A stretch of DNA of 64,000 nt from Spirochaetia bacterium (GTDB lineage: Bacteria > Spirochaetota > Spirochaetia > CADAEX01). The stretch spans positions 3,328,001-3,392,000 of the forward strand of contig OY759746.1 in assembly GCA_963662795.1 (NCBI GenBank), read 5' to 3'. The position numbers were made by a program, and so were the translations under genes. Positions 18,081 to 31,120 of the stretch are shown piece by piece. Position 1 is the stretch's first letter. Each line of letters starts with the position of its first letter. The notes under the pieces were generated by a model. It saw nothing but the letters and a program-made list of their open reading frames with translations. It made no database searches and was not told where the DNA came from.

Positions 18081-18732
18081 TATAGCAGGATTGCTTAATA
18101 TCATTTTCATTTCAGCGCTATTTCCCCTTGTTTTATCCTGCGCTGAAAACAGACCCGAAATAAACCAGATTTTCTGGCAGATAAACAAAATCCATAACCT
18201 TGATTCAGGAAAGTATTATGATACTCTTTCACTTTTTATTGAGGCACGGGATGAGGACGGTATTGAAGACCTTCAGACAATCTATCTTATAAATGACAGC
18301 GAAGAACTTTTCTGGAAAATTACGGAAGAGAACTGGATCCAAAAAACCGACGGGGAAGAAAACTGGTTCGGTTCAGGTTCAATAATAATGAATGATTTTT
18401 CATTTTTCCCTTCCGGGAAATACAGGGCCGTTGTAATTGATGAAGCAGGAGAAAGAGCGGAAACTTCTTTTACCATTGGCAAATATGAATCCGGGTTCCC
18501 TGAAGATAAATTCCCGGCAGCAGGAGTCAGGGGTAATACCCCGTATTATTCTCCGGGGACTGAAGCTCTCTGGTTTTATGATAAAGAGATGAAGCTTGTT
18601 AAAGAGGTTTCCGCAATTCGTTCAGATGCCAAAAATATCCAGATTCCTTCCAATGGGGAAGTTATGTTCGCATATAAATATGACAGAGCCAATGGATTCG
18701 GCCTTGTAACCGGGCCATATGGAATTAAATAG
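18058..18732 (+). CDS. Hypothetical lipoprotein
   Basis: Lipobox VLSC; 'D.DG.EDL', 'P.G.YR..VID.AG'; start uncertain. Confidence 0.65.
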   Translation: MLKNTDFSIAGLLNIIFISALFPLVLSCAENRPEINQIFWQINKIHNLDSGKYYDTLSLFIEARDEDGIEDLQTIYLINDSEELFWKITEENWIQKTDGEENWFGSGSIIMNDFSFFPSGKYRAVVIDEAGERAETSFTIGKYESGFPEDKFPAAGVRGNTPYYSPGTEALWFYDKEMKLVKEVSAIRSDAKNIQIPSNGEVMFAYKYDRANGFGLVTGPYGIK

Positions 18733-20086
18733 CCATGTTGATTTTTTTAAGATCTTCCTGCATTTCTTCTTTTTTAATTATATCAATCGGTCTGTTTTCG
18801 ATATAGGCAAGTGCGCTTCGTGTGAAATCAGATGCTGAAAATATTATCCCTTTAATGATATTCTGCTTTTTCATGTCTTCAATAAACACTCTTATATAAG
18901 ATTCATCGATAGGCTCGGGCAGACGGAAAAAGTTTATAAGAAGGGACTGTACCTTGATATTCCGCCATTTTCCGGAATTTTTATCTACGGCAACTATCTG
19001 ACAGCCGTTTTTTATAGGAACTATCTCCCTTTCCGCAAAACCCCGGACTTCAAGAATCTTTATGCATATTTCAATAAATTTGTCATTACCGGCAGTCAGA
19101 AAATCTTTCATTGAATCGTCTGTCCGGATTTCCTGATACTGGCTCAGTTTTTTTTCGACATCCTTGAATCCCGGTTTTTTTTCAAATATTGCTTCCCATT
19201 GATCAACCGCATTGATGATTTTTCTCTCTTTCTCATAACATGCGGCAAGAAAATATCTGGCATAAAGTATTTCATTATCAGAGCTGTCTTTTGATAATCT
19301 TACAGCCCTTTCAAGTTCCATAATCGCGGATTCGATTTTGCTGTTCATCATGTGGCAAATCCCTTTCTCAATTATTGATTTCATCTTGAGTTCAGGATCT
19401 TTCTGTGCTTTTTCAAAAGCCGTTATAGCTGCCGTGAAATTACGGCTGTCTTTGTTTATTTTTCCGATAAAAAAATGAGCCTGCATGTTGTTCACATTAT
19501 ATTTCAGGCATTCTTCAAATGATGATTTGGCCTGTGTGAGCTGTTTTGAGCTGTAATAAATTTTGCCCAGTTTGAAATGTGCTTTATCATTTCTTTTATC
19601 AAGTTCAACCGCTTTCTGGTAATAGGATATCGCATTGTCTATTTTTCCGCGTCCTTCGAAAAGTTCCCCGACTATATATTGATGGTTTGTGTTATATGGA
19701 TCTTTTTTAATAAGCAGAAGGAATTCTTTCAAGGCCTCTTCGTGCTGATTAAACTTCAGGAAAAGGTTCGCGATTGTTTCCCTGAAAGTGAATTCGTCAA
19801 TTATTCCGGTGAATCTGCCGAGTTCATTTACTTTTATGAATTCCAGAAGCGCCAGTTCCGGTTTTCCATCCATCTGAAATGCGGTTCCAAGCAGATAATG
19901 GAGTTCGGAATTGGCCTGATCCCTGATTAAAAGCTGTTTTATTGTTTTTATGGCTGAATTATATCTGCCGTTTCTGATAAGATTGTTGATTGAGGAGATT
20001 TTTCTTGGAACAAGGAGTGATTTAACCAATAATATGATAAAAATAAATATTACTATACCGACAATTGTAGTAGTGACAAGAAACAT
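18725..20086 (-). CDS. Membrane-anchored TPR protein with C-terminal Mrr-like domain
   Basis: N-terminal TM, many TPR repeats, C-terminal 'KGIIFSASDFT.SA......PI.II' typical of Mrr_cat. Confidence 0.8.
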   Translation of the reverse strand: MFLVTTTIVGIVIFIFIILLVKSLLVPRKISSINNLIRNGRYNSAIKTIKQLLIRDQANSELHYLLGTAFQMDGKPELALLEFIKVNELGRFTGIIDEFTFRETIANLFLKFNQHEEALKEFLLLIKKDPYNTNHQYIVGELFEGRGKIDNAISYYQKAVELDKRNDKAHFKLGKIYYSSKQLTQAKSSFEECLKYNVNNMQAHFFIGKINKDSRNFTAAITAFEKAQKDPELKMKSIIEKGICHMMNSKIESAIMELERAVRLSKDSSDNEILYARYFLAACYEKERKIINAVDQWEAIFEKKPGFKDVEKKLSQYQEIRTDDSMKDFLTAGNDKFIEICIKILEVRGFAEREIVPIKNGCQIVAVDKNSGKWRNIKVQSLLINFFRLPEPIDESYIRVFIEDMKKQNIIKGIIFSASDFTRSALAYIENRPIDIIKKEEMQEDLKKINMAI

Positions 20087-20158
20087 GAAAATCTCCTATT
20101 GTTTATAGATTAAATATATTTTCTTATGCTGTCAAATATAATATCCTGTGGTATGTAT

Positions 20159-20866
20159 ATGAAAAATAAAATTATTATATTCCTGTTGTTATGCAGTACT
20201 CCTTTTATCTGCCTTTATGCCGAAGAAAATCTCCTGGGCAGGGGAGAAGAGCTTTTTATGCAAAATCGGCCCGCTGATGCGATACCTTTACTGCTTGGTG
20301 CACTTGAAAGAAATCCTGATGATGAAAAAATATTCCTGATGCTCGGAACTTCTTATTCACAGACTAAAAATTTCGAAAAGGCAGTAAATTATTTTAAGGA
20401 AGGAGCTAAAAAAGCATTAAAGAACAGGGATCTTTATTACTATAATGCGGGAAACACATATTATCTTATGGGGGAGTACCCTCTTGCTGAGGAAATGTAT
20501 TCCAGGGCAATTAGGGAGAACGGAAGCAGAAGCGGCAGCTATCTGAACAGAGCCAATACAAGACTAAGCATGGGTAAAAGAGAAGATGCTGTATCTGATT
20601 ATAAGGTATATCTTACAATTGAGCCTGATAATTATCAGAGAGAAACTATTCAGAAGCTTATTGATCTTCTGGAAAAACGGACCGGTGAAGAACTGATAAA
20701 AAAACAGCAGGATGAGGCAAGAAAGCTTGCCGAAGAAAAAAGAAAACAGGAAATGCTGAAAGATGTTCTGGATTCACTTAAAAACATAAGCGATGAAACA
20801 CGAAATGTTTCAGCAGGGACAGAAAAAATAAGCGATTATGAAGAAGAACTTGAACTTAAAGAATAA
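20159..20866 (+). CDS. Exported TPR protein
   Basis: Signal peptide; TPR motifs (YYNAGN, YLNRAN). Confidence 0.8.
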   Translation: MKNKIIIFLLLCSTPFICLYAEENLLGRGEELFMQNRPADAIPLLLGALERNPDDEKIFLMLGTSYSQTKNFEKAVNYFKEGAKKALKNRDLYYYNAGNTYYLMGEYPLAEEMYSRAIRENGSRSGSYLNRANTRLSMGKREDAVSDYKVYLTIEPDNYQRETIQKLIDLLEKRTGEELIKKQQDEARKLAEEKRKQEMLKDVLDSLKNISDETRNVSAGTEKISDYEEELELKE

Positions 20867-20885
20867 ATTTTTGTGAGGAAAACAG

Positions 20886-22736
20886 ATGAACCGTAGAATA
20901 TTGATAATCGCGGCAGCAGTAATTATTATCCTGCTTGCCCTTTTTTTTATAATCGGCAGTATAACCGGAAATAAAACTGATCCTGAAGGAGCCGGAGGGG
21001 CAGATAAACTCAGAACCAATACCATAAGGCTTGCGAAGGAATATTTTGAGAAGGGGGAATACCAGAGGGCCCTTGACCTGCTGGATAAAATTCTTATTCA
21101 GGATCCGGACGATAATGACGCAAAATCGCTCAGGGACAGCATATTGGCAGAAAAAAATGTCAAGTCGGCTGAGGAAAAGGAAAAAGAGCTTTCAATGCAG
21201 GATAAGCTTAAGGACAGCCTGGATGAACTTGGCAGCAGTTTGCAGGAAAAACGCCCTCAAGCGCAGCTTCCAATGCCGCCTGCCCAGAGTGAAACAGCGC
21301 AGGTTAAACCCAAAGATACTGCCGGATTATCTGCCGCTGAAAAAGAAAAGCAGAAACAGGTAAATGATCTAATAAAACAGGGAATTGAAAAAATGAACAG
21401 CGGCCGTCATCCGGCTGCGAGATCGGATTTTGATTCAGCGCTTAAAATTGATGATAATTCAGCAGAAGCCTGGGCCAGAAAAGGAGAATCCTTTCTGTCT
21501 GAAAACAGCAGCGACCCTGACAATTTAAAGGAAGCTGTTATAAATTCCAGGAAAGCTATTGAGAAGGATTCAAATTTATGGCTCCCTCATTATGTGCTTG
21601 GCCAGGTCTATAACGAAACAAGAGACTATTCGAGCGCTATCGATGAATTCAAACAGGCTTCAAAACTGAATCCTGAAAATTACCTGGTTTTTTACGAGCT
21701 TGGAAAAGCTCAGTACGCTGCCGGACAGTATCAGGGAGCAAAAAGTTCTTTTGAAAGCTGCGTCCACATTAAAAAGGATTTTGCCAACGGGCATTACAGG
21801 CTGGGCAAAACTTATCAGCAGACCGGAGATGAAAACCGCGCGTTAAAGGCATTCGGCGATGCGCTTAAAATTGACAGTAAATTTGACCTTTCCTGGTATG
21901 AAACAGGCAATATACTGAAAAATCAGAACGATTACAACGGGGCATATCAGGCGTATATGAAGGCGTATAACATAAATCCGAATCAGCCGGCATATCTCAT
22001 TCAGATAGGCAATATTTTGTCATGGCAGGGAAAATACAATGATGCTGAAGATTATTATCTCAAGGCCCTTACCATGCGGCCGCAGTCTGCAGAAATAAAC
22101 AACAATATGGCGCTTGTTAAAATAAAAGGGGGAAAGAGTGATGAAGCTGTTATTTACGCAAGGACTGCTGTAAAAATTGACCCTAAAAACGCCAGATATT
22201 ATTATACTCTCGGACAGGCATCTGAGGAAAACGGGGACCAGAGCTCTGCAGTAAAAGCCTACGGGGAAGCGATAAAACTTGATCCAGGTTATCAGCTTCC
22301 ATACATAAATCTCGGTAAAATTTATGATGATAATAAAATGTATGATGAAGCTCTTTCAATACTGCTTAAAGGGTATCAGCTCGGAAGTGATGATTTCGCG
22401 GTTAACAATAATCTGGGGATTGTCTATCTTCACAAAGAGCTATACAACGACAGCATCAAGCATTTTCTTTCTGCGGTTAAATCCAGACCTGATGCAACAC
22501 ATGCGCGGTATAACCTCGGGATAGCATATATTGAAACTTCACAGGACGATATTGCAATTAATACATTGAATGAGCTTATAAAAATCAGCCCTTCCTATTA
22601 CGATGCCTATTACCGGCTCGGGCACCTTTATATCAAAAAGGGAGATCAGAAAAAGGCCAATGAAATATTCAATAAACTGCTGGAGAAAAAGCCTGATTAT
22701 GAAAAGAGAAGTGAAATACTCACTCTGATAAACTAA
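20886..22736 (+). CDS. Membrane-anchored multi-TPR protein
   Basis: N-terminal TM and many consecutive TPR repeats; convergent with mutL. Confidence 0.85.
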   Translation: MNRRILIIAAAVIIILLALFFIIGSITGNKTDPEGAGGADKLRTNTIRLAKEYFEKGEYQRALDLLDKILIQDPDDNDAKSLRDSILAEKNVKSAEEKEKELSMQDKLKDSLDELGSSLQEKRPQAQLPMPPAQSETAQVKPKDTAGLSAAEKEKQKQVNDLIKQGIEKMNSGRHPAARSDFDSALKIDDNSAEAWARKGESFLSENSSDPDNLKEAVINSRKAIEKDSNLWLPHYVLGQVYNETRDYSSAIDEFKQASKLNPENYLVFYELGKAQYAAGQYQGAKSSFESCVHIKKDFANGHYRLGKTYQQTGDENRALKAFGDALKIDSKFDLSWYETGNILKNQNDYNGAYQAYMKAYNINPNQPAYLIQIGNILSWQGKYNDAEDYYLKALTMRPQSAEINNNMALVKIKGGKSDEAVIYARTAVKIDPKNARYYYTLGQASEENGDQSSAVKAYGEAIKLDPGYQLPYINLGKIYDDNKMYDEALSILLKGYQLGSDDFAVNNNLGIVYLHKELYNDSIKHFLSAVKSRPDATHARYNLGIAYIETSQDDIAINTLNELIKISPSYYDAYYRLGHLYIKKGDQKKANEIFNKLLEKKPDYEKRSEILTLIN

Positions 22737-22741
22737 GTTCG

Positions 22742-24505
22742 CTATACAATCCTGTTTATCCGGGCAAGAAGCTCTTTCCGGGTGATAGTCTGCCACACCG
22801 GCCTCCCGTGGGGGCAGTAAGGTGTTTCAAGATTAAAAGCTGCATTTATGATGGTTTCAGCTTCTCCCGGAGAGAGAATATCCCCTCCCTTTACTGCTTT
22901 TTTGCAGGAGGCAGTTGCGTATAACTTTTTTCTTACTTCGTTAATGTTTCCGGGAAATTCCATAATAATCGATGCAATATCATTTTTAATGCAGTTTAAT
23001 ATTTCGGGAAGAGAATCGATAAACCATCTGCCTGATTCGTCCCTTTCAATTATTATTCCGGTCTTTTTGTATTCTGAAAGCATTTCCTCTGAAAACTCCA
23101 TGCTTTCCGGAAAATAAAGCGGTACAAGAAGCTTCTGCATAATTTGTTTTTTGCTGCTGAAGGACTCATATATCGATTTTTCGTGCGCGGCATGCTGGTC
23201 AATGATATAGAGTGTCTCATCTTTTTCACACAGAAGAAAAGTGTTGAAAATCTGACCAAGGTATTTGAAATTTGCATCTTCGGTAAAAATATTTTCCGGA
23301 TTAAATGCTGCGGATGGAATTCCAGCAGGTGTTTTTTCTGCAACGGAAAATACCCTGCCTTCTGCGTTATCTTTGAGCCTGATCACCGGATCCGCATCTG
23401 TGCTGGATTGCGGATAGCCGGATATTTCTTTTTCATGGAAATTATTCCCGAAAAGATTTTCTTCCCTGGATTTGAATGTATATTCAGTTTTACCTGATGA
23501 GGCGCTGTTTTCTTTTAATGTTTTAATAATCAGTTCTGTAACTGAATGGTGTATCTGTTTTATATTTTTTATTTTTGCTTCTCTTTTAGCCGGATGGATG
23601 TTGAAATCTACCAGATCAGGTTTGTTATCAATGAATATTACAGCTGCAGGAAAATGTCCTCCCGGAAGATATTCCGAATAACCGTAAACTGCTGCCTGGA
23701 TCAGCGAATATTCCTGTATCCGTCTTCCGTTAAGGTAAATTTGGATATATTTCCTGTCCTTCCTGTATAAAACAGGATCCGCCAGCACTGCTTTTATGCT
23801 GTAGCTGCCCTCTTTTCCGGCCGGTTCGTATACTTCATATAAAAGCGACTGGTCCTGAAACACAGTGCTGTACGACAAAAGTATTCTTTCTTTTAATGAT
23901 GATACCGGCAGCATCTGTATAAGTTTACCGTCAATATAAAGTTTGAAGCTGATATCATGTCTTGCCGCCGCCTTTTCATAAAAAATGTTCCTGCATAATG
24001 TTGTTTCCGCTGAAGGGCTTTTTAAAAACTGTTTTCTGGCGGGGAAGGCGTAAAAAAGATCTTTTGCGGAAATTATTGTCCCTTTTCTTGCTTTTACAGT
24101 GCTGATTTCGTATTTTCCGCTGCTGTCAGTTTTAAGCGAATGTCCGGCAGATTCTGAATCTGTTGAAGTTATTATTTCAAGACGCGCTGAAGAAGCAATG
24201 CTGGATAAGGCTTCCCCTCTGAAACCGAGTGTACTTATGGAATAGAGGTCTTCTGCTGAAGATATTTTGGAAGTTGCATGGGGGAGAAAACAGAGCTCAA
24301 GGTCTCCCCTGTCCATACCGCTGCCGTTATCTGTTACCCTTATTTCTTTCATACCGCTTGATTCAATATTTACAGTAATATCGAGGCTGCCTGCGTCGAT
24401 GGAATTATCCAGCAGTTCCCTGAGTATTGAAGCGGGTCTGTCAATTACTTCCCCTGCAGCGATCTTAAGCGCGACCGACTGCTCGAGTATCCTTATCTGT
24501 CCCAT
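22742..24505 (-). CDS. mutL: DNA mismatch repair endonuclease MutL
   Basis: IAAGEVI.RP, HATSKI, GFRGEALSSI, DFNIHPAK.E, DQHAAHE, SCK.AVK, CPHGRP. Confidence 0.97.
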   Translation of the reverse strand: MGQIRILEQSVALKIAAGEVIDRPASILRELLDNSIDAGSLDITVNIESSGMKEIRVTDNGSGMDRGDLELCFLPHATSKISSAEDLYSISTLGFRGEALSSIASSARLEIITSTDSESAGHSLKTDSSGKYEISTVKARKGTIISAKDLFYAFPARKQFLKSPSAETTLCRNIFYEKAAARHDISFKLYIDGKLIQMLPVSSLKERILLSYSTVFQDQSLLYEVYEPAGKEGSYSIKAVLADPVLYRKDRKYIQIYLNGRRIQEYSLIQAAVYGYSEYLPGGHFPAAVIFIDNKPDLVDFNIHPAKREAKIKNIKQIHHSVTELIIKTLKENSASSGKTEYTFKSREENLFGNNFHEKEISGYPQSSTDADPVIRLKDNAEGRVFSVAEKTPAGIPSAAFNPENIFTEDANFKYLGQIFNTFLLCEKDETLYIIDQHAAHEKSIYESFSSKKQIMQKLLVPLYFPESMEFSEEMLSEYKKTGIIIERDESGRWFIDSLPEILNCIKNDIASIIMEFPGNINEVRKKLYATASCKKAVKGGDILSPGEAETIINAAFNLETPYCPHGRPVWQTITRKELLARINRIV

Positions 24506-24524: not shown

Positions 24525-27500
24525 TCAGAACATTACCTTTCCGAAAATTCCTGCCTGAATACCAAGAAGATATATGTTTTTTTCATCTGAAACATAATCA
24601 TAAATTTTGTGTTTTTCCATACCAATCGATAAAACAGCTTTGAAATTCCCTTTTTCAGGAAAGACAAGAGCGGATTCATGGGTAAGGAGGATTGACCAGT
24701 AATTAATTTCGCTTAATGTGCTTTCAGGTGCTGTAGAATAAATAAGAGATTCTGTATGTGAAAAATAGGCTGGATCATCTTTCTCTTCAGCAAGATATTT
24801 CATATGGATTCTCTCTTTCGGACGGCGGATCCAGATGTATGAGGCAGAAGCATCATCGTAATAGTATTTCATGTCCTCTGAGTGGCTGTACACATACCTG
24901 AATTTGTTATCGATAATGAATTCTGTATCCTTATGTCCTGAAAAATAGAGACTGTTGCCGATTGCGTATTCCCTGTCCTGGGGGACCGGTGTATCTGTTG
25001 AACTCGCGGTAACAGAGAACCTTGTTATAAATTCATCAGTTCTGTAAAAATCGAAGACAGGCTCAATCCCTGTGGATCCGAACATGTTGACAGCCCTTGC
25101 CGTGTATTCACCGGTAATGCGGTAAATGTTAACAAAAGTGTCTTCATTTTTTGTAAAATCCTTTGAATACCGGAAACCAAGTTCAGAAGGGGCATATAGG
25201 TCTGAAATGCTCTGCCTCCGTCCCCGTGTAAGTTTTATAAATGCGGCAGGTGTATAGGTGCTTTTTGAAAGATAACTGCTTTTATCTTCAAAAGTCTCTT
25301 CAAATCCGTCCGAAAAAAATTCAGCGAACGGTATTCCGGTATAGAAATAACTTTGACCTGCAAAATCGCTGAACCAGAGGGCTGTATCGTCAAGAAAACT
25401 GCTTTCAGGCGCATCCCTGTTTGTGTATGAAAAACTCCTGGAATATCCCGGGGTAATATCCCACCCGTTTGCGCTTTTTTTATAAAACGGGAACTGAAGC
25501 TGCAGCAGTCCTGTGCTTGTCTGGCTCCTGTCCTCATCTTCTCCTGATGACTGTGTTCCGCTGCTGATAAGAACATCAGTTCCTGAAAATTCCCTCTTGA
25601 ACAGTATATTGTTTTCCGTCTCTATTGATCTGTCAGGCCATTTGTCGCTGTTATCCGCCGCAAGAAGTGAAAAAGAGTTAAGCCAGTTTTCCATATACCA
25701 TGAATCTTCAGTTGTGTAGCCGGATGAAATCTTTGTAAGGGATAAATCCGAGCTTCCGCTGATCGTTCCGTAAGTGTCTGATTTGTATTTAAAGTCCCAT
25801 TTCTGGGAAAGGTCGCTGTACAGGAGATATGATTCAGCCGATGCGCTGATATAACCTGTGTCGCCTGACTTTGCCTTCAGCTCATTCCTTTTTGAGAATG
25901 ATAAATTCCATTCATCCTTTGATTCACTGTAGTAATCTGAAAATGTCAGAAAATCCGTACCAAGGGGAGATGTATAGCTGTGATCTATTACCGAGTAAAA
26001 CTCCGGTTCTACCCATGAAAAGTCGAGATTAGTCTCAAGGTCTGAATTGAGAATACCGGTTTTGACAGTTGTTTTTGTCCTTGTATTGTTGGCATCGGTA
26101 TTTTCACTCAAATCAGTGCTGAAATCCTCTCTTACGTGCATGAAATCCTCTTTGAGTGTAAGGTCGCTTATTATGCTCTGCCCCCGTGCAGAAAGCAGCG
26201 TGCCCGGAAAAAATTGCTCATATCTGGTCGCGACAGCCCCGCTTAAAGATATCTTCGGGTCTGTAAGGTGGACTTCATCAAGATATAATTTACCGGCATC
26301 TGAATCTGATGTGATTTTAAGCATGGAAAGGCCCTTCTCTGTCGATGTCACCTTAACGCTTCCGTTCATGTTCTCTCCCGCAAGGTAAATGCGTTTTTTA
26401 TCTAGATCAATTTCAAGCTTTCTCCATTCATTAAAAGGATCAGTTGTAAAAGTTGCTGTAATACCCCTGCCTGATGTGTCTGTATAGGAAATTGTGAACT
26501 CCGCAGGGTCAGGCGTTCCGAGCTCAGGAATCCTGATATATCCTGCGAGTGTCCGGTACATATCATAAGGAACCGGGGTTGAGTAACCTGTGAGGGTATA
26601 GTCTGTTCCGTCCCAGCCCGATTCAAGCACCTTCTGGGTTGATGTAATGTCTAAATCACTGAAAAAGATGTCTTCTACCTCAGGATATGCTTTTACCAGT
26701 GTTTCAGGGGGCGCTTCCCCTGAAGAGTACCTCTCATAAACCTCTTTTGCGTAGGTTGAATCCTGGTTGGAAGCAGTAGCGCTGAAGGGAGAGCTTTCTA
26801 TAAAAAGTTCTCCGATGAGTATCCTTCCTGTTACAGCCGCTCCTGATTCATTTACATAAATAAACCTGACGGCAGATGACTGGGTTAGAAGCTTTTTTTC
26901 ATCTGATGTAAAGTTGTAATTTAATTTAATCCATTTACCTGATGATGATATATCGGGAAATGTGATTGCATAAACGGATAAAATATCATCAGCATCCTGT
27001 GTTACAATATTTTTCATATCCTCGAGGTCAAGTACCTTGTTAAGGTCATTATCCTCAGAATCTATTGAGCCGTTCCCCCTTGTCGTGCTTCCTCCTTTAC
27101 CGCCTACAAGAAGCACTGCGCTGTTTCCTGTATCGTTAAACGGAAAACCGTCTGAATATATGGAGTTTTCACTGTCAAGTACCCCGTCACCGTCAAGATC
27201 CTCGCTTACAGTTCCTATCTGGATATAAAGCTTGCCTGCTGAAACATCTTCGCATTTTATTTTAAACGAGATGCTTTCGGCGCTGCTTAAATCCTGGTTT
27301 TCCGAGTATTTTCGGAGCGGCACCTGGGCGCCGGCCCATTCATCATCATCAACATCCATATCCATGACAAGTATCTCCCCCTGGATTCCGTCATTGGATG
27401 CCTTTGCTGTATACGGGCCGGGAGGATTGCCTGTTTCATAGCTGTATATCTGGCTGTCAGACACATCCCATGTGTAATTGTTTAGCGATGCGCTGCCGAG

Positions 27501-29453
27501 GGAATAGCTGTAATAATCCTTGAATATCAGTTTCCCCCTGTTTCCCCTTTCGGCCGGGAAACTGCCTATGGAAATATTGTCTTCCGGCACACTCGAGGGG
27601 AATATATAGCTGCTGCCGAGCCTCATGGTTATGCCTGACTGCTGCATATCGAATAGCCGGAGTAAACCGGTGGTGTCGGGAGATGTAATTGAAACGCCTG
27701 TATCTATCCCCAGGGTAAAGTTTTCCCTTGTATATTCAAGACCACCTGTCGTAAGAAGGGAGCCTTTATACTGCTCAGGATATCTTGAATACTGATTTTG
27801 AAGGACATTCCACTTAATCCCGAAAGCAAGCTCTGCAGTCATATAATCGCCCAGAAAAAACCTGTTACCTGTCGCGAACAGCAGATCGCCGCCCTCAGTA
27901 TCGATGTATGAAGTCTTATAGGTAATTTTTATTTTGTCATTGGGATGTATATATGTTTTGAATGTTATAATACCGCTTGCATAATCTATATCGTACATTG
28001 ATTCCGCATATCCGTTTCTTTTTACTGTAACAGAACCGGGAACAATATCGGGATCAAGCGAAAAAGAGCTGACAGGTGAAAGAGTTTCAAGGCGCAGTTC
28101 CTTTACAAAGCTCCCCGGGACAGTTTTCTTTGAAAGCCCGTAAACAGGATTTAAAAACTTCCCGGAGAGGGGATACCTGTTATACATATCACGTACGCCG
28201 TTGGCATTCACATAAATATTTACGAGATTGTCTTCCGGTTCAGTCCTGAATTTAAGTTTTTCATCTATTACATCGGAATCGCTGCTTTTATCGGATATGC
28301 CGAAATTTATCTTTGATCTGTCGTCAGGGAGCTGTGCTGATGACTTGTAATATGAAAGTGATTCGAAAGGGGAGTATTCCCCTCGGTTGTAGATTAAAAG
28401 GGCCTGTTTGCCGTTGACAGTTACCTGCCAGTTGTCTGTAAGATCATAACTGAGAGTTGGATAATCTTCCAAAGCCCAGCTGAAATCTACAGCCCCGCTT
28501 GATGGAACCGGTGTCCCGTCAGCATCAACAGCGCACAAAGCTCCTTTCCCGATTGAAGTGCTTCCTATCGGGAATCCGTTTTTTGTGTAATAAACCAGGG
28601 CCCGGCTTTCAAGGGGCGGAGTAAATAGAACAGTTCCGTCATCGGAAGATATAACAGCTTCTGTATTTTCAGCCTTTTTATACCGTCTGCCGTCAGAACC
28701 CGTAAAACTTCCGTCATCATTTTCAATATAGACTTCAATGTTTTCAAAGTCCGTATCCGGAAGTATAAAGAGTCTGCCCCTGAAATAATCAGTTGGTACA
28801 AGGGTCTGTCTGTTAACTTCGTTTTTCCCTATAAATTCCTTGACTGCGAGTTCTGCCGGGTCATACCTTACCATCAGCTCATGCCATGTGTTTTCTGTCT
28901 TGAAAGCGGCAGATGCGCCCAGTGAATTGTTGGGTATTGATGAAATTGTTAAAAAACTGTAATCCTCAATATCAATTTTTGTATTACCGACAAGAACAGA
29001 CTGGACAAACTCATCCTCTTTCCCCTCATATCCGAGGAGAAAGGTATTCTGAGTTGAGTCTTCCTTGATTGTCGCTTCAAAGAAATACCTGTCCATAAGC
29101 CAGAGTGAAATTGTAAGGTCAGGGACCTGAGTAAAGGCAAGGCCGGGTGTCATCTGGGGGAAAGGGGCGGAAATATATTCACCTGATGAGAGATCGTATC
29201 CTATAGAACCTGTAAAAGATGAGTCCCAGGAGCCGAGCATGTATAAATCAACATCAGCATCATTAAGCTGTGTCTGGAATATAGCTTCGGGAGCTTCATC
29301 CTTTATGCTGGCGCTGCCTCTTTGAGTCTCATTTTTTTCTTCCGGATGTAAATACTGGGTTTGGGAAATAAAAATCAGGAGCAGAAAAAAAATGCCGTAG
29401 CAGTTAAATAAATGTTTCAAAATCTTACCTAACTTCCGGAATATCACATGCAT
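24525..29453 (-). CDS. Very large outer-membrane protein, distant SprA (T9SS translocon)-like
   Basis: Signal-like N terminus, C-terminal Phe, amphipathic strands; motifs LGYEGKEDEFVQSVLVGN, DY.RGR.FIL, VPGSVTV..YDIDY.SG, NRGKL, WAG, GKLYIQIG.VSED, DSEDNDLN in SprA order. Confidence 0.65.
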   Translation of the reverse strand: MHVIFRKLGKILKHLFNCYGIFFLLLIFISQTQYLHPEEKNETQRGSASIKDEAPEAIFQTQLNDADVDLYMLGSWDSSFTGSIGYDLSSGEYISAPFPQMTPGLAFTQVPDLTISLWLMDRYFFEATIKEDSTQNTFLLGYEGKEDEFVQSVLVGNTKIDIEDYSFLTISSIPNNSLGASAAFKTENTWHELMVRYDPAELAVKEFIGKNEVNRQTLVPTDYFRGRLFILPDTDFENIEVYIENDDGSFTGSDGRRYKKAENTEAVISSDDGTVLFTPPLESRALVYYTKNGFPIGSTSIGKGALCAVDADGTPVPSSGAVDFSWALEDYPTLSYDLTDNWQVTVNGKQALLIYNRGEYSPFESLSYYKSSAQLPDDRSKINFGISDKSSDSDVIDEKLKFRTEPEDNLVNIYVNANGVRDMYNRYPLSGKFLNPVYGLSKKTVPGSFVKELRLETLSPVSSFSLDPDIVPGSVTVKRNGYAESMYDIDYASGIITFKTYIHPNDKIKITYKTSYIDTEGGDLLFATGNRFFLGDYMTAELAFGIKWNVLQNQYSRYPEQYKGSLLTTGGLEYTRENFTLGIDTGVSITSPDTTGLLRLFDMQQSGITMRLGSSYIFPSSVPEDNISIGSFPAERGNRGKLIFKDYYSYSLGSASLNNYTWDVSDSQIYSYETGNPPGPYTAKASNDGIQGEILVMDMDVDDDEWAGAQVPLRKYSENQDLSSAESISFKIKCEDVSAGKLYIQIGTVSEDLDGDGVLDSENSIYSDGFPFNDTGNSAVLLVGGKGGSTTRGNGSIDSEDNDLNKVLDLEDMKNIVTQDADDILSVYAITFPDISSSGKWIKLNYNFTSDEKKLLTQSSAVRFIYVNESGAAVTGRILIGELFIESSPFSATASNQDSTYAKEVYERYSSGEAPPETLVKAYPEVEDIFFSDLDITSTQKVLESGWDGTDYTLTGYSTPVPYDMYRTLAGYIRIPELGTPDPAEFTISYTDTSGRGITATFTTDPFNEWRKLEIDLDKKRIYLAGENMNGSVKVTSTEKGLSMLKITSDSDAGKLYLDEVHLTDPKISLSGAVATRYEQFFPGTLLSARGQSIISDLTLKEDFMHVREDFSTDLSENTDANNTRTKTTVKTGILNSDLETNLDFSWVEPEFYSVIDHSYTSPLGTDFLTFSDYYSESKDEWNLSFSKRNELKAKSGDTGYISASAESYLLYSDLSQKWDFKYKSDTYGTISGSSDLSLTKISSGYTTEDSWYMENWLNSFSLLAADNSDKWPDRSIETENNILFKREFSGTDVLISSGTQSSGEDEDRSQTSTGLLQLQFPFYKKSANGWDITPGYSRSFSYTNRDAPESSFLDDTALWFSDFAGQSYFYTGIPFAEFFSDGFEETFEDKSSYLSKSTYTPAAFIKLTRGRRQSISDLYAPSELGFRYSKDFTKNEDTFVNIYRITGEYTARAVNMFGSTGIEPVFDFYRTDEFITRFSVTASSTDTPVPQDREYAIGNSLYFSGHKDTEFIIDNKFRYVYSHSEDMKYYYDDASASYIWIRRPKERIHMKYLAEEKDDPAYFSHTESLIYSTAPESTLSEINYWSILLTHESALVFPEKGNFKAVLSIGMEKHKIYDYVSDEKNIYLLGIQAGIFGKVMF

Positions 29454-29513: not shown

Positions 29514-30419
29514 TTACAGGCTTTCTTTCGCCCTGATAAGATTATACAATACTTTGTTTATAGTTACATCAATATTATGTTTTTGCCCAAGTTCGATCAT
29601 CTTGCCGGAAAGCATCTGTACCTCTGTTTTCCTTTTCGCTTCAGTATCCTGGCACATTGATGTTTTTCCATCACCGCCCAGGGAGGCGAGAATCCCGTAC
29701 CATTTAGTGAGGTCAGACCCGGAAAGATCAACACCTTCCGCATTTGCTACCTTGATTACCTCAAGCATTGTCTGGTCCATCAGTTCTTTGGCGTATACAT
29801 TGCTTCTCATAAACTCATAATTTGCGTTAAGTATGGCCGATACCTGGTTGATGCCTGTATTGATCATGAACTTGAACCACATAACATGCTTAATGTCCTC
29901 CGGTATTTCATGCGCAAGAGAGCATTCGATAAAAAGATCTTTTACCGGTTTAATATCATTTTCAGTAGTTGAATTATCAAAATGGCCGAAAAAAAGTTTG
30001 CCTTCGTTCGTGAAAATGGTAGCGTTTCCATCTCTTACTGCATCCATCCCAAGCGGAACAGACAAGAGTATTTTACCTTTTTTCAAACTGTTCTTTATGA
30101 TTTCTTCGCTGTCGATACCGTTAAGAACAGATATTATAACTGTCTCTTCCGTGACCATGTTTTTAATCTGTTCTATTATTTCAGGGAGATTGTGATATTT
30201 TACAGCAATCAGGATAAAATCAGGTTTAAATGCCGGGTTTCCGTCTGTGCATTTTACCGGATATTTTTTACCGTTAACGATAAGGCCGTCAGATTCAAGC
30301 CTTGTTTTTCTTTTCCCGTCAGCAAGAAAAAATATGTTCTTCTTTTTTTCAATAAATTTATGTCCGTAAAGCGCCCCAAGAGCGCCTGCGCCGGCAACAA
30401 GGATCTTTTCAATTTTCAT
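29514..30419 (-). CDS. panE: 2-dehydropantoate 2-reductase (ketopantoate reductase)
   Basis: GAGALG, AVK, LNG, W.KF..N..IN, KTSM.QD....RKTE. Confidence 0.9.
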   Translation of the reverse strand: MKIEKILVAGAGALGALYGHKFIEKKKNIFFLADGKRKTRLESDGLIVNGKKYPVKCTDGNPAFKPDFILIAVKYHNLPEIIEQIKNMVTEETVIISVLNGIDSEEIIKNSLKKGKILLSVPLGMDAVRDGNATIFTNEGKLFFGHFDNSTTENDIKPVKDLFIECSLAHEIPEDIKHVMWFKFMINTGINQVSAILNANYEFMRSNVYAKELMDQTMLEVIKVANAEGVDLSGSDLTKWYGILASLGGDGKTSMCQDTEAKRKTEVQMLSGKMIELGQKHNIDVTINKVLYNLIRAKESL

Positions 30420-30424
30420 CAGTA

Positions 30425-31120
30425 TCAGACGCCCCTGTTAAACAAATATATTTCATCCATGTTTAAGGTGTTCTGGAGGTGTATTGAATCCTGAATACTG
30501 TCCTGCGAAGTTGATTCAACATCAATCAGTTTTGTAAATTCCGCAAAGTCAGGGTGGCTGACAATAATTTTGAAAGTAAAAGTTTTTGTTATATTGTTTT
30601 CTTCAGCTTCTATGGGATATGGCCAGAAAATGAAAAGGCCGCCTGTATATTCTGAAAGAATTACCGGATTGGATGTCATTTCAGAGGTCATTTTGACAAG
30701 ATTGTCATCGAGAAATAGTTTTACATCAGCATTGGAAACCGGCTCAAACGTTTTTCCGTTTATGATTTTTCCGATTATATTGGGAAAATTGAAATAAAAA
30801 CCATCTTTAAAAAATTCTTCTGTTCTTCTATTATGGTCAGTTCCAAATCTCTTGCGGGATGATATTACAGAAAAACCTTCCTTGACCAGATGGAATATAT
30901 CAGCATCCATCTGCAGTTTTTTTGAATATTCAAGCTCATGGTGAACAATTCCCCTGCTTGAGATTACATATTTTGGGGCGGAATTATTTAATACATAGCA
31001 TGCGACATCAAGGCGGCATTGAATACAGTCGCAGTATTTTTCCCTGTCAAAAGTTGAGCTCTGACAGTATTCATCAACGGAATTTTTGACTTTTTCCTCA
31101 AGAAGATTGTGTATTTCCAT
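30425..31120 (-). CDS. ComFB (late competence development) domain protein with C-terminal beta-sandwich
   Basis: HN.LEE.V, C.C.QCR.DVACY.LN...PKYV.S..G. Confidence 0.88.
   Translation of the reverse strand: MEIHNLLEEKVKNSVDEYCQSSTFDREKYCDCIQCRLDVACYVLNNSAPKYVISSRGIVHHELEYSKKLQMDADIFHLVKEGFSVISSRKRFGTDHNRRTEEFFKDGFYFNFPNIIGKIINGKTFEPVSNADVKLFLDDNLVKMTSEMTSNPVILSEYTGGLFIFWPYPIEAEENNITKTFTFKIIVSHPDFAEFTKLIDVESTSQDSIQDSIHLQNTLNMDEIYLFNRGV

Follow-up and report, generated by a model that had tools for sequence, protein, structure and literature searches.

A giant outer-membrane protein of Spirochaetota remotely related to SprA: candidate pore of a reduced, type-9-like export route

The locus

The window analysed here, a stretch of 64,000 nucleotides from the genome of a Spirochaetia bacterium (contig OY759746.1, positions 3,328,001 to 3,392,000), carries on its minus strand, as do all the window features located below, a gene for a protein of 1,642 residues (24525..29453, stop codon included; open reading frame (ORF) list and translation), here called P0001. 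The protein is remotely related to SprA, the giant outer-membrane translocon of the T9SS (type 9 secretion system), and it is probably a reduced translocon of this type, serving a minimal type-9-like route that operates without the known motor. The reading draws on profile homology, on the joint occurrence of the giant with candidate partner proteins across the phylum, and on covariation between the first and last strands of the predicted barrel.

The ORF was listed exactly as an earlier note on this DNA, made from the letters alone, had given it. It is free of internal stops, and its translation terminates in ...GIFGKVMF, which bears out the terminal Phe claimed in that note; the motif coordinates given there also agree with the translation, LGYEGKEDEFVQSVLVGN being residues 140-157 (nt 28983-29036, by arithmetic on the translation) and GKLYIQIGTVSEDLDGDG residues 740-757 (nt 27183-27236), while IVPGSVTV begins at residue 470 (nt ~28045). 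The N terminus (approximately residues 1-33; 29355..29453) resembles a signal peptide, as had been suggested, with a basic and then a hydrophobic stretch when the translation is judged by eye, and relatives of the protein have clear signal peptides.

The gene lies between panE (2-dehydropantoate 2-reductase; 29514..30419; TIGR00745, E 7.5e-64), 60 nt upstream, and mutL (22742..24505; TIGR00585, E 1e-120), 19 nt downstream, both on the same strand and both confirmed by NCBIfam matches as the neighbours named earlier. A ComFB-domain protein (30425..31120; PF10719, E 3.4e-19) is the further upstream neighbour, as in 22 of 41 loci compared. The cluster with panE as neighbour comprises five loci, the window among them; mutL comes after the giant gene at 30 of the 41 and is thereby a conserved neighbour, though probably one without a functional link to it. 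Promoter and terminator scans at the giant gene gave nothing decisive.

Beside mutL, three TPR proteins (18725-22736) match many TPR families, PorW/SprE among them; as the scores are 35-65 bits where the cut-off is 250, the matches were taken to be generic TPR similarity. A different arrangement is seen in 18 related loci (L009-L054), each with two further signal-peptide ORFs between the giant gene and mutL, namely ORF-A (~460 aa, e.g. L010:10919-12325) and ORF-B (~740 aa, e.g. L010:12347-14533), both with Phe (or Leu, Ile, Met or Tyr) as the C-terminal residue. ORF-B has an N-terminal FecR domain, and its C-terminal part groups with ORF-A by BLAST; ORF-A itself has no Pfam or PDB match. Neither ORF is found at the window locus, and no homologue of ORF-A was found in the genome to which the window belongs.

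Relatives in Spirochaetota

The relatives of P0001 include 45 proteins of 22-91% identity, all of them unnamed or spirochaete hypothetical proteins, in which the full length is conserved, and the gene is therefore a real one rather than a chance ORF. Among 66 related loci, 65 bear titles with Spirochaet-, Sediminispirochaeta or spirochete, L033 being titled only 'uncultured bacterium'. When representative proteins were searched with P0001, the best 150 of 1,216 matches were all members of its own family; a homologue search with a long form of the protein (see below) gave 233 matches, of which the 120 listed were all unnamed or spirochaete/'bacterium' hypothetical proteins.

The protein belongs to a superfamily that extends over Spirochaetota and whose members range in length from about 1,140 to 2,300 aa. 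The long-form spirochaete giants (alignment A5) measure ~1,860-2,000 aa and stand in public databases as 'hypothetical protein'; a form of 2,084 aa, extended at the N terminus by ~430 aa, occurs in another genus (L107:4597-10851); and nine short relatives of 1,137-1,175 aa (L106:5963-9373, L108-L115) come from one genus of the window's class, in which eight of nine sampled genomes are of about 2.7-2.9 Mb, six of those eight being single contigs.

The distribution was followed in 301 Spirochaetota genomes (246 of them high-quality; 126 genera). The family profile finds a homologue in 139 of the 301, in 115 of the 246 high-quality genomes and in 83 of the 126 genera, and the union of this search with that by the SprA model TIGR04189 raises the giant-bearing genomes to 143. 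Two large families are nearly devoid of the giant (0/45 and 1/38 genomes).

The presence of the giant in 83 of 126 genera, together with the mutL synteny, fits an inheritance that is old and, as the earlier note had proposed, vertical. That the gene might instead be what is left of a type 9 system acquired not long ago from the Bacteroidota group is most improbable. Its GC (guanine plus cytosine) content of 0.42-0.44, at the top of the window range of 0.31-0.44, would suit such an origin, but homologues are spread over the phylum as just described, the 45 near homologues and all related loci but L033 have spirochaete titles or none, the order with mutL is conserved, and a gene that had arrived recently would resemble Bacteroidota SprA far more than the 27 bits indicate.

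Homology to SprA

TIGR04189, the SprA model, has a curated cut-off of 200 bits. In a six-frame search of the 3.93-Mb genome it finds two matches only, both inside the P0001 ORF and colinear with the model: positions 86-193 match at 28962..29285 (E 0.0099), on the LGYEG... segment that includes LGYEGKEDEFVQSVLVGN, and positions 879-964 match at 27153..27419 (E 0.0072), on the acidic loops of GKLYIQIG..EDLDGDG, which is the best stretch. When residues 45-1100 of P0001 are compared with the model, three stretches together give E 5.9e-07 and 27.1 bits. Among 41 family members, 13 match TIGR04189 at E<=10, against six for the next family. Frames of about 1,750-2,340 aa matching the model occur in 103 of the 301 genomes, and the best single stretch of the long spirochaete proteins reaches 97 bits (E 3e-28); the 200-bit cut-off is reached in none of the 301.

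The decisive link between P0001 and SprA is a transitive one, through the long spirochaete family. By BLASTP, P0001 can be aligned colinearly with the longer spirochaete proteins along some 1,000 residues (E 1.5e-38 and 9e-36), and hhalign of alignment A1 against A5 gives P 100% and E 5.1e-59 over 948 columns (A1 87-1093 to A5 147-1233). A profile of ten sequences from the best-matching domain of the long family (alignment A6) in turn retrieves SprA from the PDB at E 4.8e-12 over SprA residues 609-884, the entries being those of F. johnsoniae (6h3i_A, 6h3j_A) and six more, while residues 440-640 of P0001 (alignment A7) align with A6 at P 96.9% and E 1.9e-10. This segment (27534..28136), with its PGSV.V..NG...DY.SG sandwich, GNRF/RWN hairpin and PDTTG.LRLF.M motif, is the equivalent of SprA 609-884. 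The SprA relationship put forward in the earlier note is thereby upheld, directly and by the two-step route to 6H3I. Of the SprA motifs cited there, the two that were checked against real SprA do align: SprA VPQGSVVVTAAGR...DYSVDYQLGRV pairs with the PGSV.V..NG..Y.vDY.sG motif of the long family, and for the LGYEG/GN region ...fllGYegkedeflqsvriGN of the P0001 family is paired with SprA FKLAYTPSEDDIIQKVEVGN in an N-terminal alignment. In the language-model placement of the Atlas, 25 of the 30 clusters nearest to two stored relatives fall in a set with SprA_N on 12-36% of members, which is a lead rather than proof.

Judged by these profile statistics, remote homology of P0001 to SprA/Sov is real, being statistically significant over roughly the first 770-1,090 residues, and in the N-terminal ~1,090 residues the barrel hairpins and the sandwich domains inserted among them seem to follow one another as they do in SprA.

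Several results nonetheless weigh against reading P0001 as a SprA-type translocon. The score of P0001, 27 bits, is far below the 200 bits required for the family; at full length the protein has no NCBIfam match at E<=1 and nothing relevant in Pfam; and the Pfam SprA_N model (PF14349) is matched by none of the 41 members at E<=10, nor by any of 23 members at E<=0.1 or of five long homologues at E<=0.01. The N-terminal profile of the family does find SprA (residues 123-272) as its sole match in the PDB, but only at E 0.38; this is the search that supplied the N-terminal pairing above. SprA was not found in the PDB with profiles of residues 440-640 and 640-900, nor among PDB sequences by phmmer with P0001 or with a 23-sequence profile. 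Detectable similarity to SprA ends near residue 770, whereas the long family can be followed as far as about residue 1,093. SprA is matched in NCBIfam by none of the 41 members with residues 560-1642, the profile of residues 1380-1642 has no match in the PDB, and hhalign of the last 263 aa with the long family gives P 0.7%, i.e. no similarity.

The negatives obtained with whole proteins were dismissed as uninformative because domain-sized queries from the same proteins find SprA: full-length giant beta-rich queries miss it, whereas pieces of 250-1,050 residues retrieve it. Long queries appear to be lost somewhere within the HMMER pipeline, and whole-protein HMMER negatives on giant beta-rich proteins are not to be trusted.

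Barrel architecture

Residue covariation was derived, by a home-made method using mean-field direct couplings, from 196 aligned full-length family members, of which 176 are non-redundant (effective number of sequences, Neff, 166). The last strand (residues 1627-1642; 24528..24575), which ends in Phe and resembles an outer-membrane beta-signal, shows a hairpin ladder with residues 1604-1611 (0.526) and, besides, an antiparallel ladder with residues 74-89 (29187..29234), the candidate first barrel strand. The latter ladder scores 0.240, compared with 0.259 for the hairpin neighbour and 0.118 for the best control. The register 74-89/1627-1642 is rank 1 of 1,535 along residues 40-1589, with z 5.0 and a runner-up at z 3.3; in eight random half-samples the ladder ranks 1, 1, 1, 2, 2, 2, 5 and 7 of 185, and row permutation abolishes it. 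Since pairing of the first with the last strand is a requirement of a single closed barrel, the covariation speaks for one closed barrel in which both termini take part.

The short relatives preserve precisely these two ends, their residues 58-504 corresponding to P0001 70-529 and 855-1137 to 1352-1642, and share the ...AGI.GKV.F terminus; what they are without is ~478 residues spread across P0001 579-1250 (25704..27719; alignment A12 and gap map). This central region probably consists of inserted non-barrel domains. The closure ladder and the short relatives together argue for a barrel built by the two ends of the chain, with inserted domains in the middle. The size series of 1,137, 1,642, ~1,900 and 2,403 aa, the last being SprA, is a natural deletion series for structural work.

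A rather improbable alternative holds that the protein shares with SprA only N-terminal sandwich domains and hairpins, and is a large outer-membrane protein of surface-anchored or adhesin type, in which the barrel is smaller and C-terminal and there is no protein-conducting pore. It would account for the points, near residues 770 and 1,093, at which the similarities to SprA and to the long family stop, and for weak matches to laminin-G and phage-tail sandwich domains in the middle of P0001. Against it, the aligned SprA stretches hold, in our reading of the alignments, hairpin-like segments besides soluble domains; the partner with which the last strand co-varies is residues 74-89 rather than a strand of the C-terminal third, so that both termini lie in one sheet; and both ends are exactly what the short relatives retain.

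Other results count against a confident SprA-like model of the barrel. In the long family, which is less diverse (Neff 89), the closure signal was not reproduced, the top z being 3.6. The closed barrel of P0001 is predicted from covariation, and its cap and lateral gate are putative; an amphipathic-strand scan did not discriminate, and the hairpin trace from the direct couplings has only four to five ladders above noise, hence yields no strand count.

Type 9 parts in the genome of the window

No porK, porL, porM, porN or porV had been recognised in the window, and this in part also holds genome-wide. Neither GldM nor GldN was found in the genome (GldK being outside the search); GldL gave noise only (E>=1.3e-3), nine of 14 control genomes ringing alike; canonical PorV (NF033710) and PorP/SprF (TIGR03519) have no match; and of PorU (NF033707) only the tail-like C-terminal model positions 961-1095 are matched. 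The 14 control genomes include none with a T9SS, and these absences accordingly mean 'not found with these models'; as far as the models used can see, a complete transferred T9SS is excluded for this genome. The earlier note had missed, however, two candidate partners, i.e. a barrel of the PorV/PorQ family and one tailed giant protein.

The barrel, of 409 aa (G000:C1:2936911-2938140 (-) = L093:1228-2457), matches NF033709 over model positions 2-309 with 83.2 bits, carries C-terminal TPR, and is UPF0164 by Pfam (PF03687, 187.7 bits). An ordinary FadL is likewise present in the genome. The barrel gene faces divergently the genes of a 1,015-aa TPR protein and a 1,517-aa BNR/HAMP/SpoIIE-phosphatase protein. 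The other candidate is a secreted protein of 3,113 aa (G000:C1:1026174-1035515 (-) = L104:1178-10516) whose exact C terminus is formed by an Ig-like tail of T9SS type: the last ~80 residues match TIGR04183 with 27.8 bits (cut-off 23), the match ending two residues before the stop. It is the sole C-terminally tailed protein detected in the genome, other tail-like matches being internal. The protein has in addition a weak YdbH-like beta-rich region.

Neither assignment is free of counter-evidence. The score of the barrel lies below the 90-bit cut-off of NF033709, and this UPF0164/FadL-like protein is encoded 0.4 Mb from the giant gene, not adjacent to it; the tail is matched better by FlgD_ig (48.7 bits) than by Por_Secre_tail, whose 15.3 bits are below its cut-off of 27.

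Co-occurrence across the phylum

Among the 301 genomes, T9SS-type tails over the cut-off are present in 97, and 85 of these have the giant; 58 have the giant only, 12 a tail only and 146 neither. The coupling is very tight with the PorV/PorQ-family barrel, found at E<=1e-10 in 143 genomes: 127 have both, 16 the giant only, 16 the barrel only and 142 neither. Giant, barrel and tail are all present in 76 genomes. By family the pattern is consistent, with a single exception (f23) considered below.

Comparison of the tail and barrel tables further reveals at least ten genes that end in a tail and have, 68-252 nt further on and in the same orientation, a PorV-family gene (e.g. G069:C21:6516-7851, G034:C2:3913-5217 and G020:C161:18131-19339; others are G004:C123, G034:C29, G020:C81, G079:C323, G046:C87, G086:C59 and G006:C71), and these look like cargo-carrier pairs. 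As a separate observation, some spirochaete genomes have at least seven PorV-family matches and from 13 to at least 18 tail matches.

These counts must be set against three difficulties for a type-9-like interpretation: they ignore shared ancestry, so that Fisher values overstate the case; 58 of the 143 giant-bearing genomes have no C-terminal-domain (CTD) tail that was seen; and in family f23 (G016, G031, G055, G246) giant and tails are present in four of four genomes with the barrel, at E<=1e-10, in none of the four.

It is in this light that a further explanation, unlikely but by some way the most serious rival to a SprA-type translocon, is best weighed, namely that P0001 is a giant barrel of shared SprA ancestry with a different job, be it a factor in the biogenesis or integrity of the outer membrane, an exporter of surface lipoproteins or an uptake channel, its coupling with tails and PorV-family barrels reflecting shared lineage history and not function. 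The tail-less genomes just mentioned would then be expected, and the same may be said of the failure to find motor, ring or sortase, of the placement of the giant gene among housekeeping genes, of the C-terminal third unlike SprA, and of the 18 loci where two barrel-like ORFs, one with FecR, follow the giant gene and no T9SS part was matched. Moreover, the flippase for spirochaete surface lipoproteins is described as still unidentified in the reviews consulted in excerpt (PMC7857515). On the other hand, shared history sits uneasily with so tight a coupling to the PorV family (127 genomes with both against 16 and 16 with one) and with CTD-tail genes directly beside PorV-family genes in at least ten places. 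As to lipoproteins in particular, which the earlier note had offered as an example of the exported cargo, nothing links P0001 to them: the phyletic coupling points instead to Ig-like-tailed proteins and PorV/PorQ-family barrels, and a family of the window's own class, six multi-replicon genomes of only 1.0-1.8 Mb, has neither the giant nor any of the other parts (0/6). Thus, of the reduced SprA-type channel with an undescribed export route envisaged in that note, the remote homology and the shorter length have stood, and the lipoprotein example has not.

Proposed mechanism

From the homology, the phyletic coupling and the closure signal we infer a pore function for P0001 and, with it, cargo, carrier and mode of energization. 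P0001 would be exported by Sec and then inserted by BAM (the beta-barrel assembly machinery) as a giant outer-membrane beta-barrel, its first strand (residues 74-89) closing onto the last (1627-1642). Secreted proteins of large size that carry an Ig-like C-terminal tail, in this genome the 3,113-aa protein, would enter this barrel from the periplasm and pass from the pore to the PorV/PorQ-family (UPF0164/FadL-like) barrel. As the GldLM motor, the PorKN ring and the PorU sortase were not found, extraction of the cargo would have to be driven in some other way than by GldLM. This is also a point of difficulty for the scheme, for in Bacteroidota release requires the motor, according to the sections of PMC10994853 at hand, and no motor was found here.

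Extended to the phylum, the scheme becomes a tentative proposal, less firmly held than that for P0001 itself: Spirochaetota may possess an ancient, motor-less type-9-like pathway made up of a reduced SprA-type pore, a PorV/PorQ-family carrier and Ig-tagged cargo, with a release that does not depend on GldLM. If this were true, the SprA core would either predate the Bacteroidota motor and ring or have evolved independently of them, and the 1,137-aa forms would show what a minimal pore needs.

About half of the spirochaete genomes in the sample hold this putative SprA-type pore. If functional, it would widen the evolutionary range of the translocon, offer a minimal system from nature in which to ask what the pore can do by itself, and be a candidate route for protein export at the outer membrane of Spirochaetota, for which few such routes are well known. 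A literature search, subscription journals and supplements aside, found no paper on SprA relatives in spirochaetes.

Comparison with known systems

Among 97 Bacteroidetes genomes Abby et al. reported the T9SS in 60, and they found it in no clade besides, as given in the part of that paper available here (PMC4793230); in several abstracts it is termed specific to Bacteroidetes or to the FCB (Fibrobacteres–Chlorobi–Bacteroidetes) group; P0001, by contrast, is from Spirochaetota. In the Bacteroidota system, SprA is a barrel of 36 strands, capped on the outside and open at its side (PMC10994853, in extract); PorV docks across this opening, its loops binding the C-terminal domain of the cargo inside the pore (PMC10994853 and PMC12635249, each in extract), and the GldLM motor supplies the energy to extract the carrier-cargo complex (PMC10994853, likewise). 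P0001, which is known here from sequence, differs from SprA in length, 1,642 against 2,403 aa, as the earlier note had rightly said, in its 27 bits against a 200-bit cut-off with no Pfam SprA_N match, and in a C-terminal third unrelated by sequence; it differs from the T9SS as a whole in that GldLM, GldN, PorU, PorP and canonical PorV were not found with it.

The barrel of 409 aa has its likeness in the PorV/PorQ family and in the treponemal FadL-like barrels of UPF0164, to judge from 83.2 bits with NF033709 and 187.7 bits with PF03687; it departs from PorV in falling below 90 bits, in having no match to NF033710 and in carrying the C-terminal TPR. We take the FadL orthologues of T. pallidum to belong to UPF0164. 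For these orthologues see PMC12369335, of which a part was available.

Nearer at hand, the long-form giants (A5) resemble P0001 in phylum, in the C-terminal Phe and in the alignment of 948 columns at E 5.1e-59; they are 250-350 aa longer and closer to SprA (up to 97 bits), and the C-terminal 263 aa of the P0001 family do not align with them. With SprA of Flavobacterium johnsoniae and Sov of Porphyromonas gingivalis (TIGR04189; PDB 6H3I, 6H3J, 8GL6 and others), P0001 has in common that it is a giant, secreted protein predicted for the outer membrane, that its N-terminal part matches colinearly, directly at model positions 86-193 and 879-964 and via the long family at SprA 609-884, and that, in Spirochaetota, giants of its kind occur together with PorV-family barrels and C-terminal Ig-like tails.

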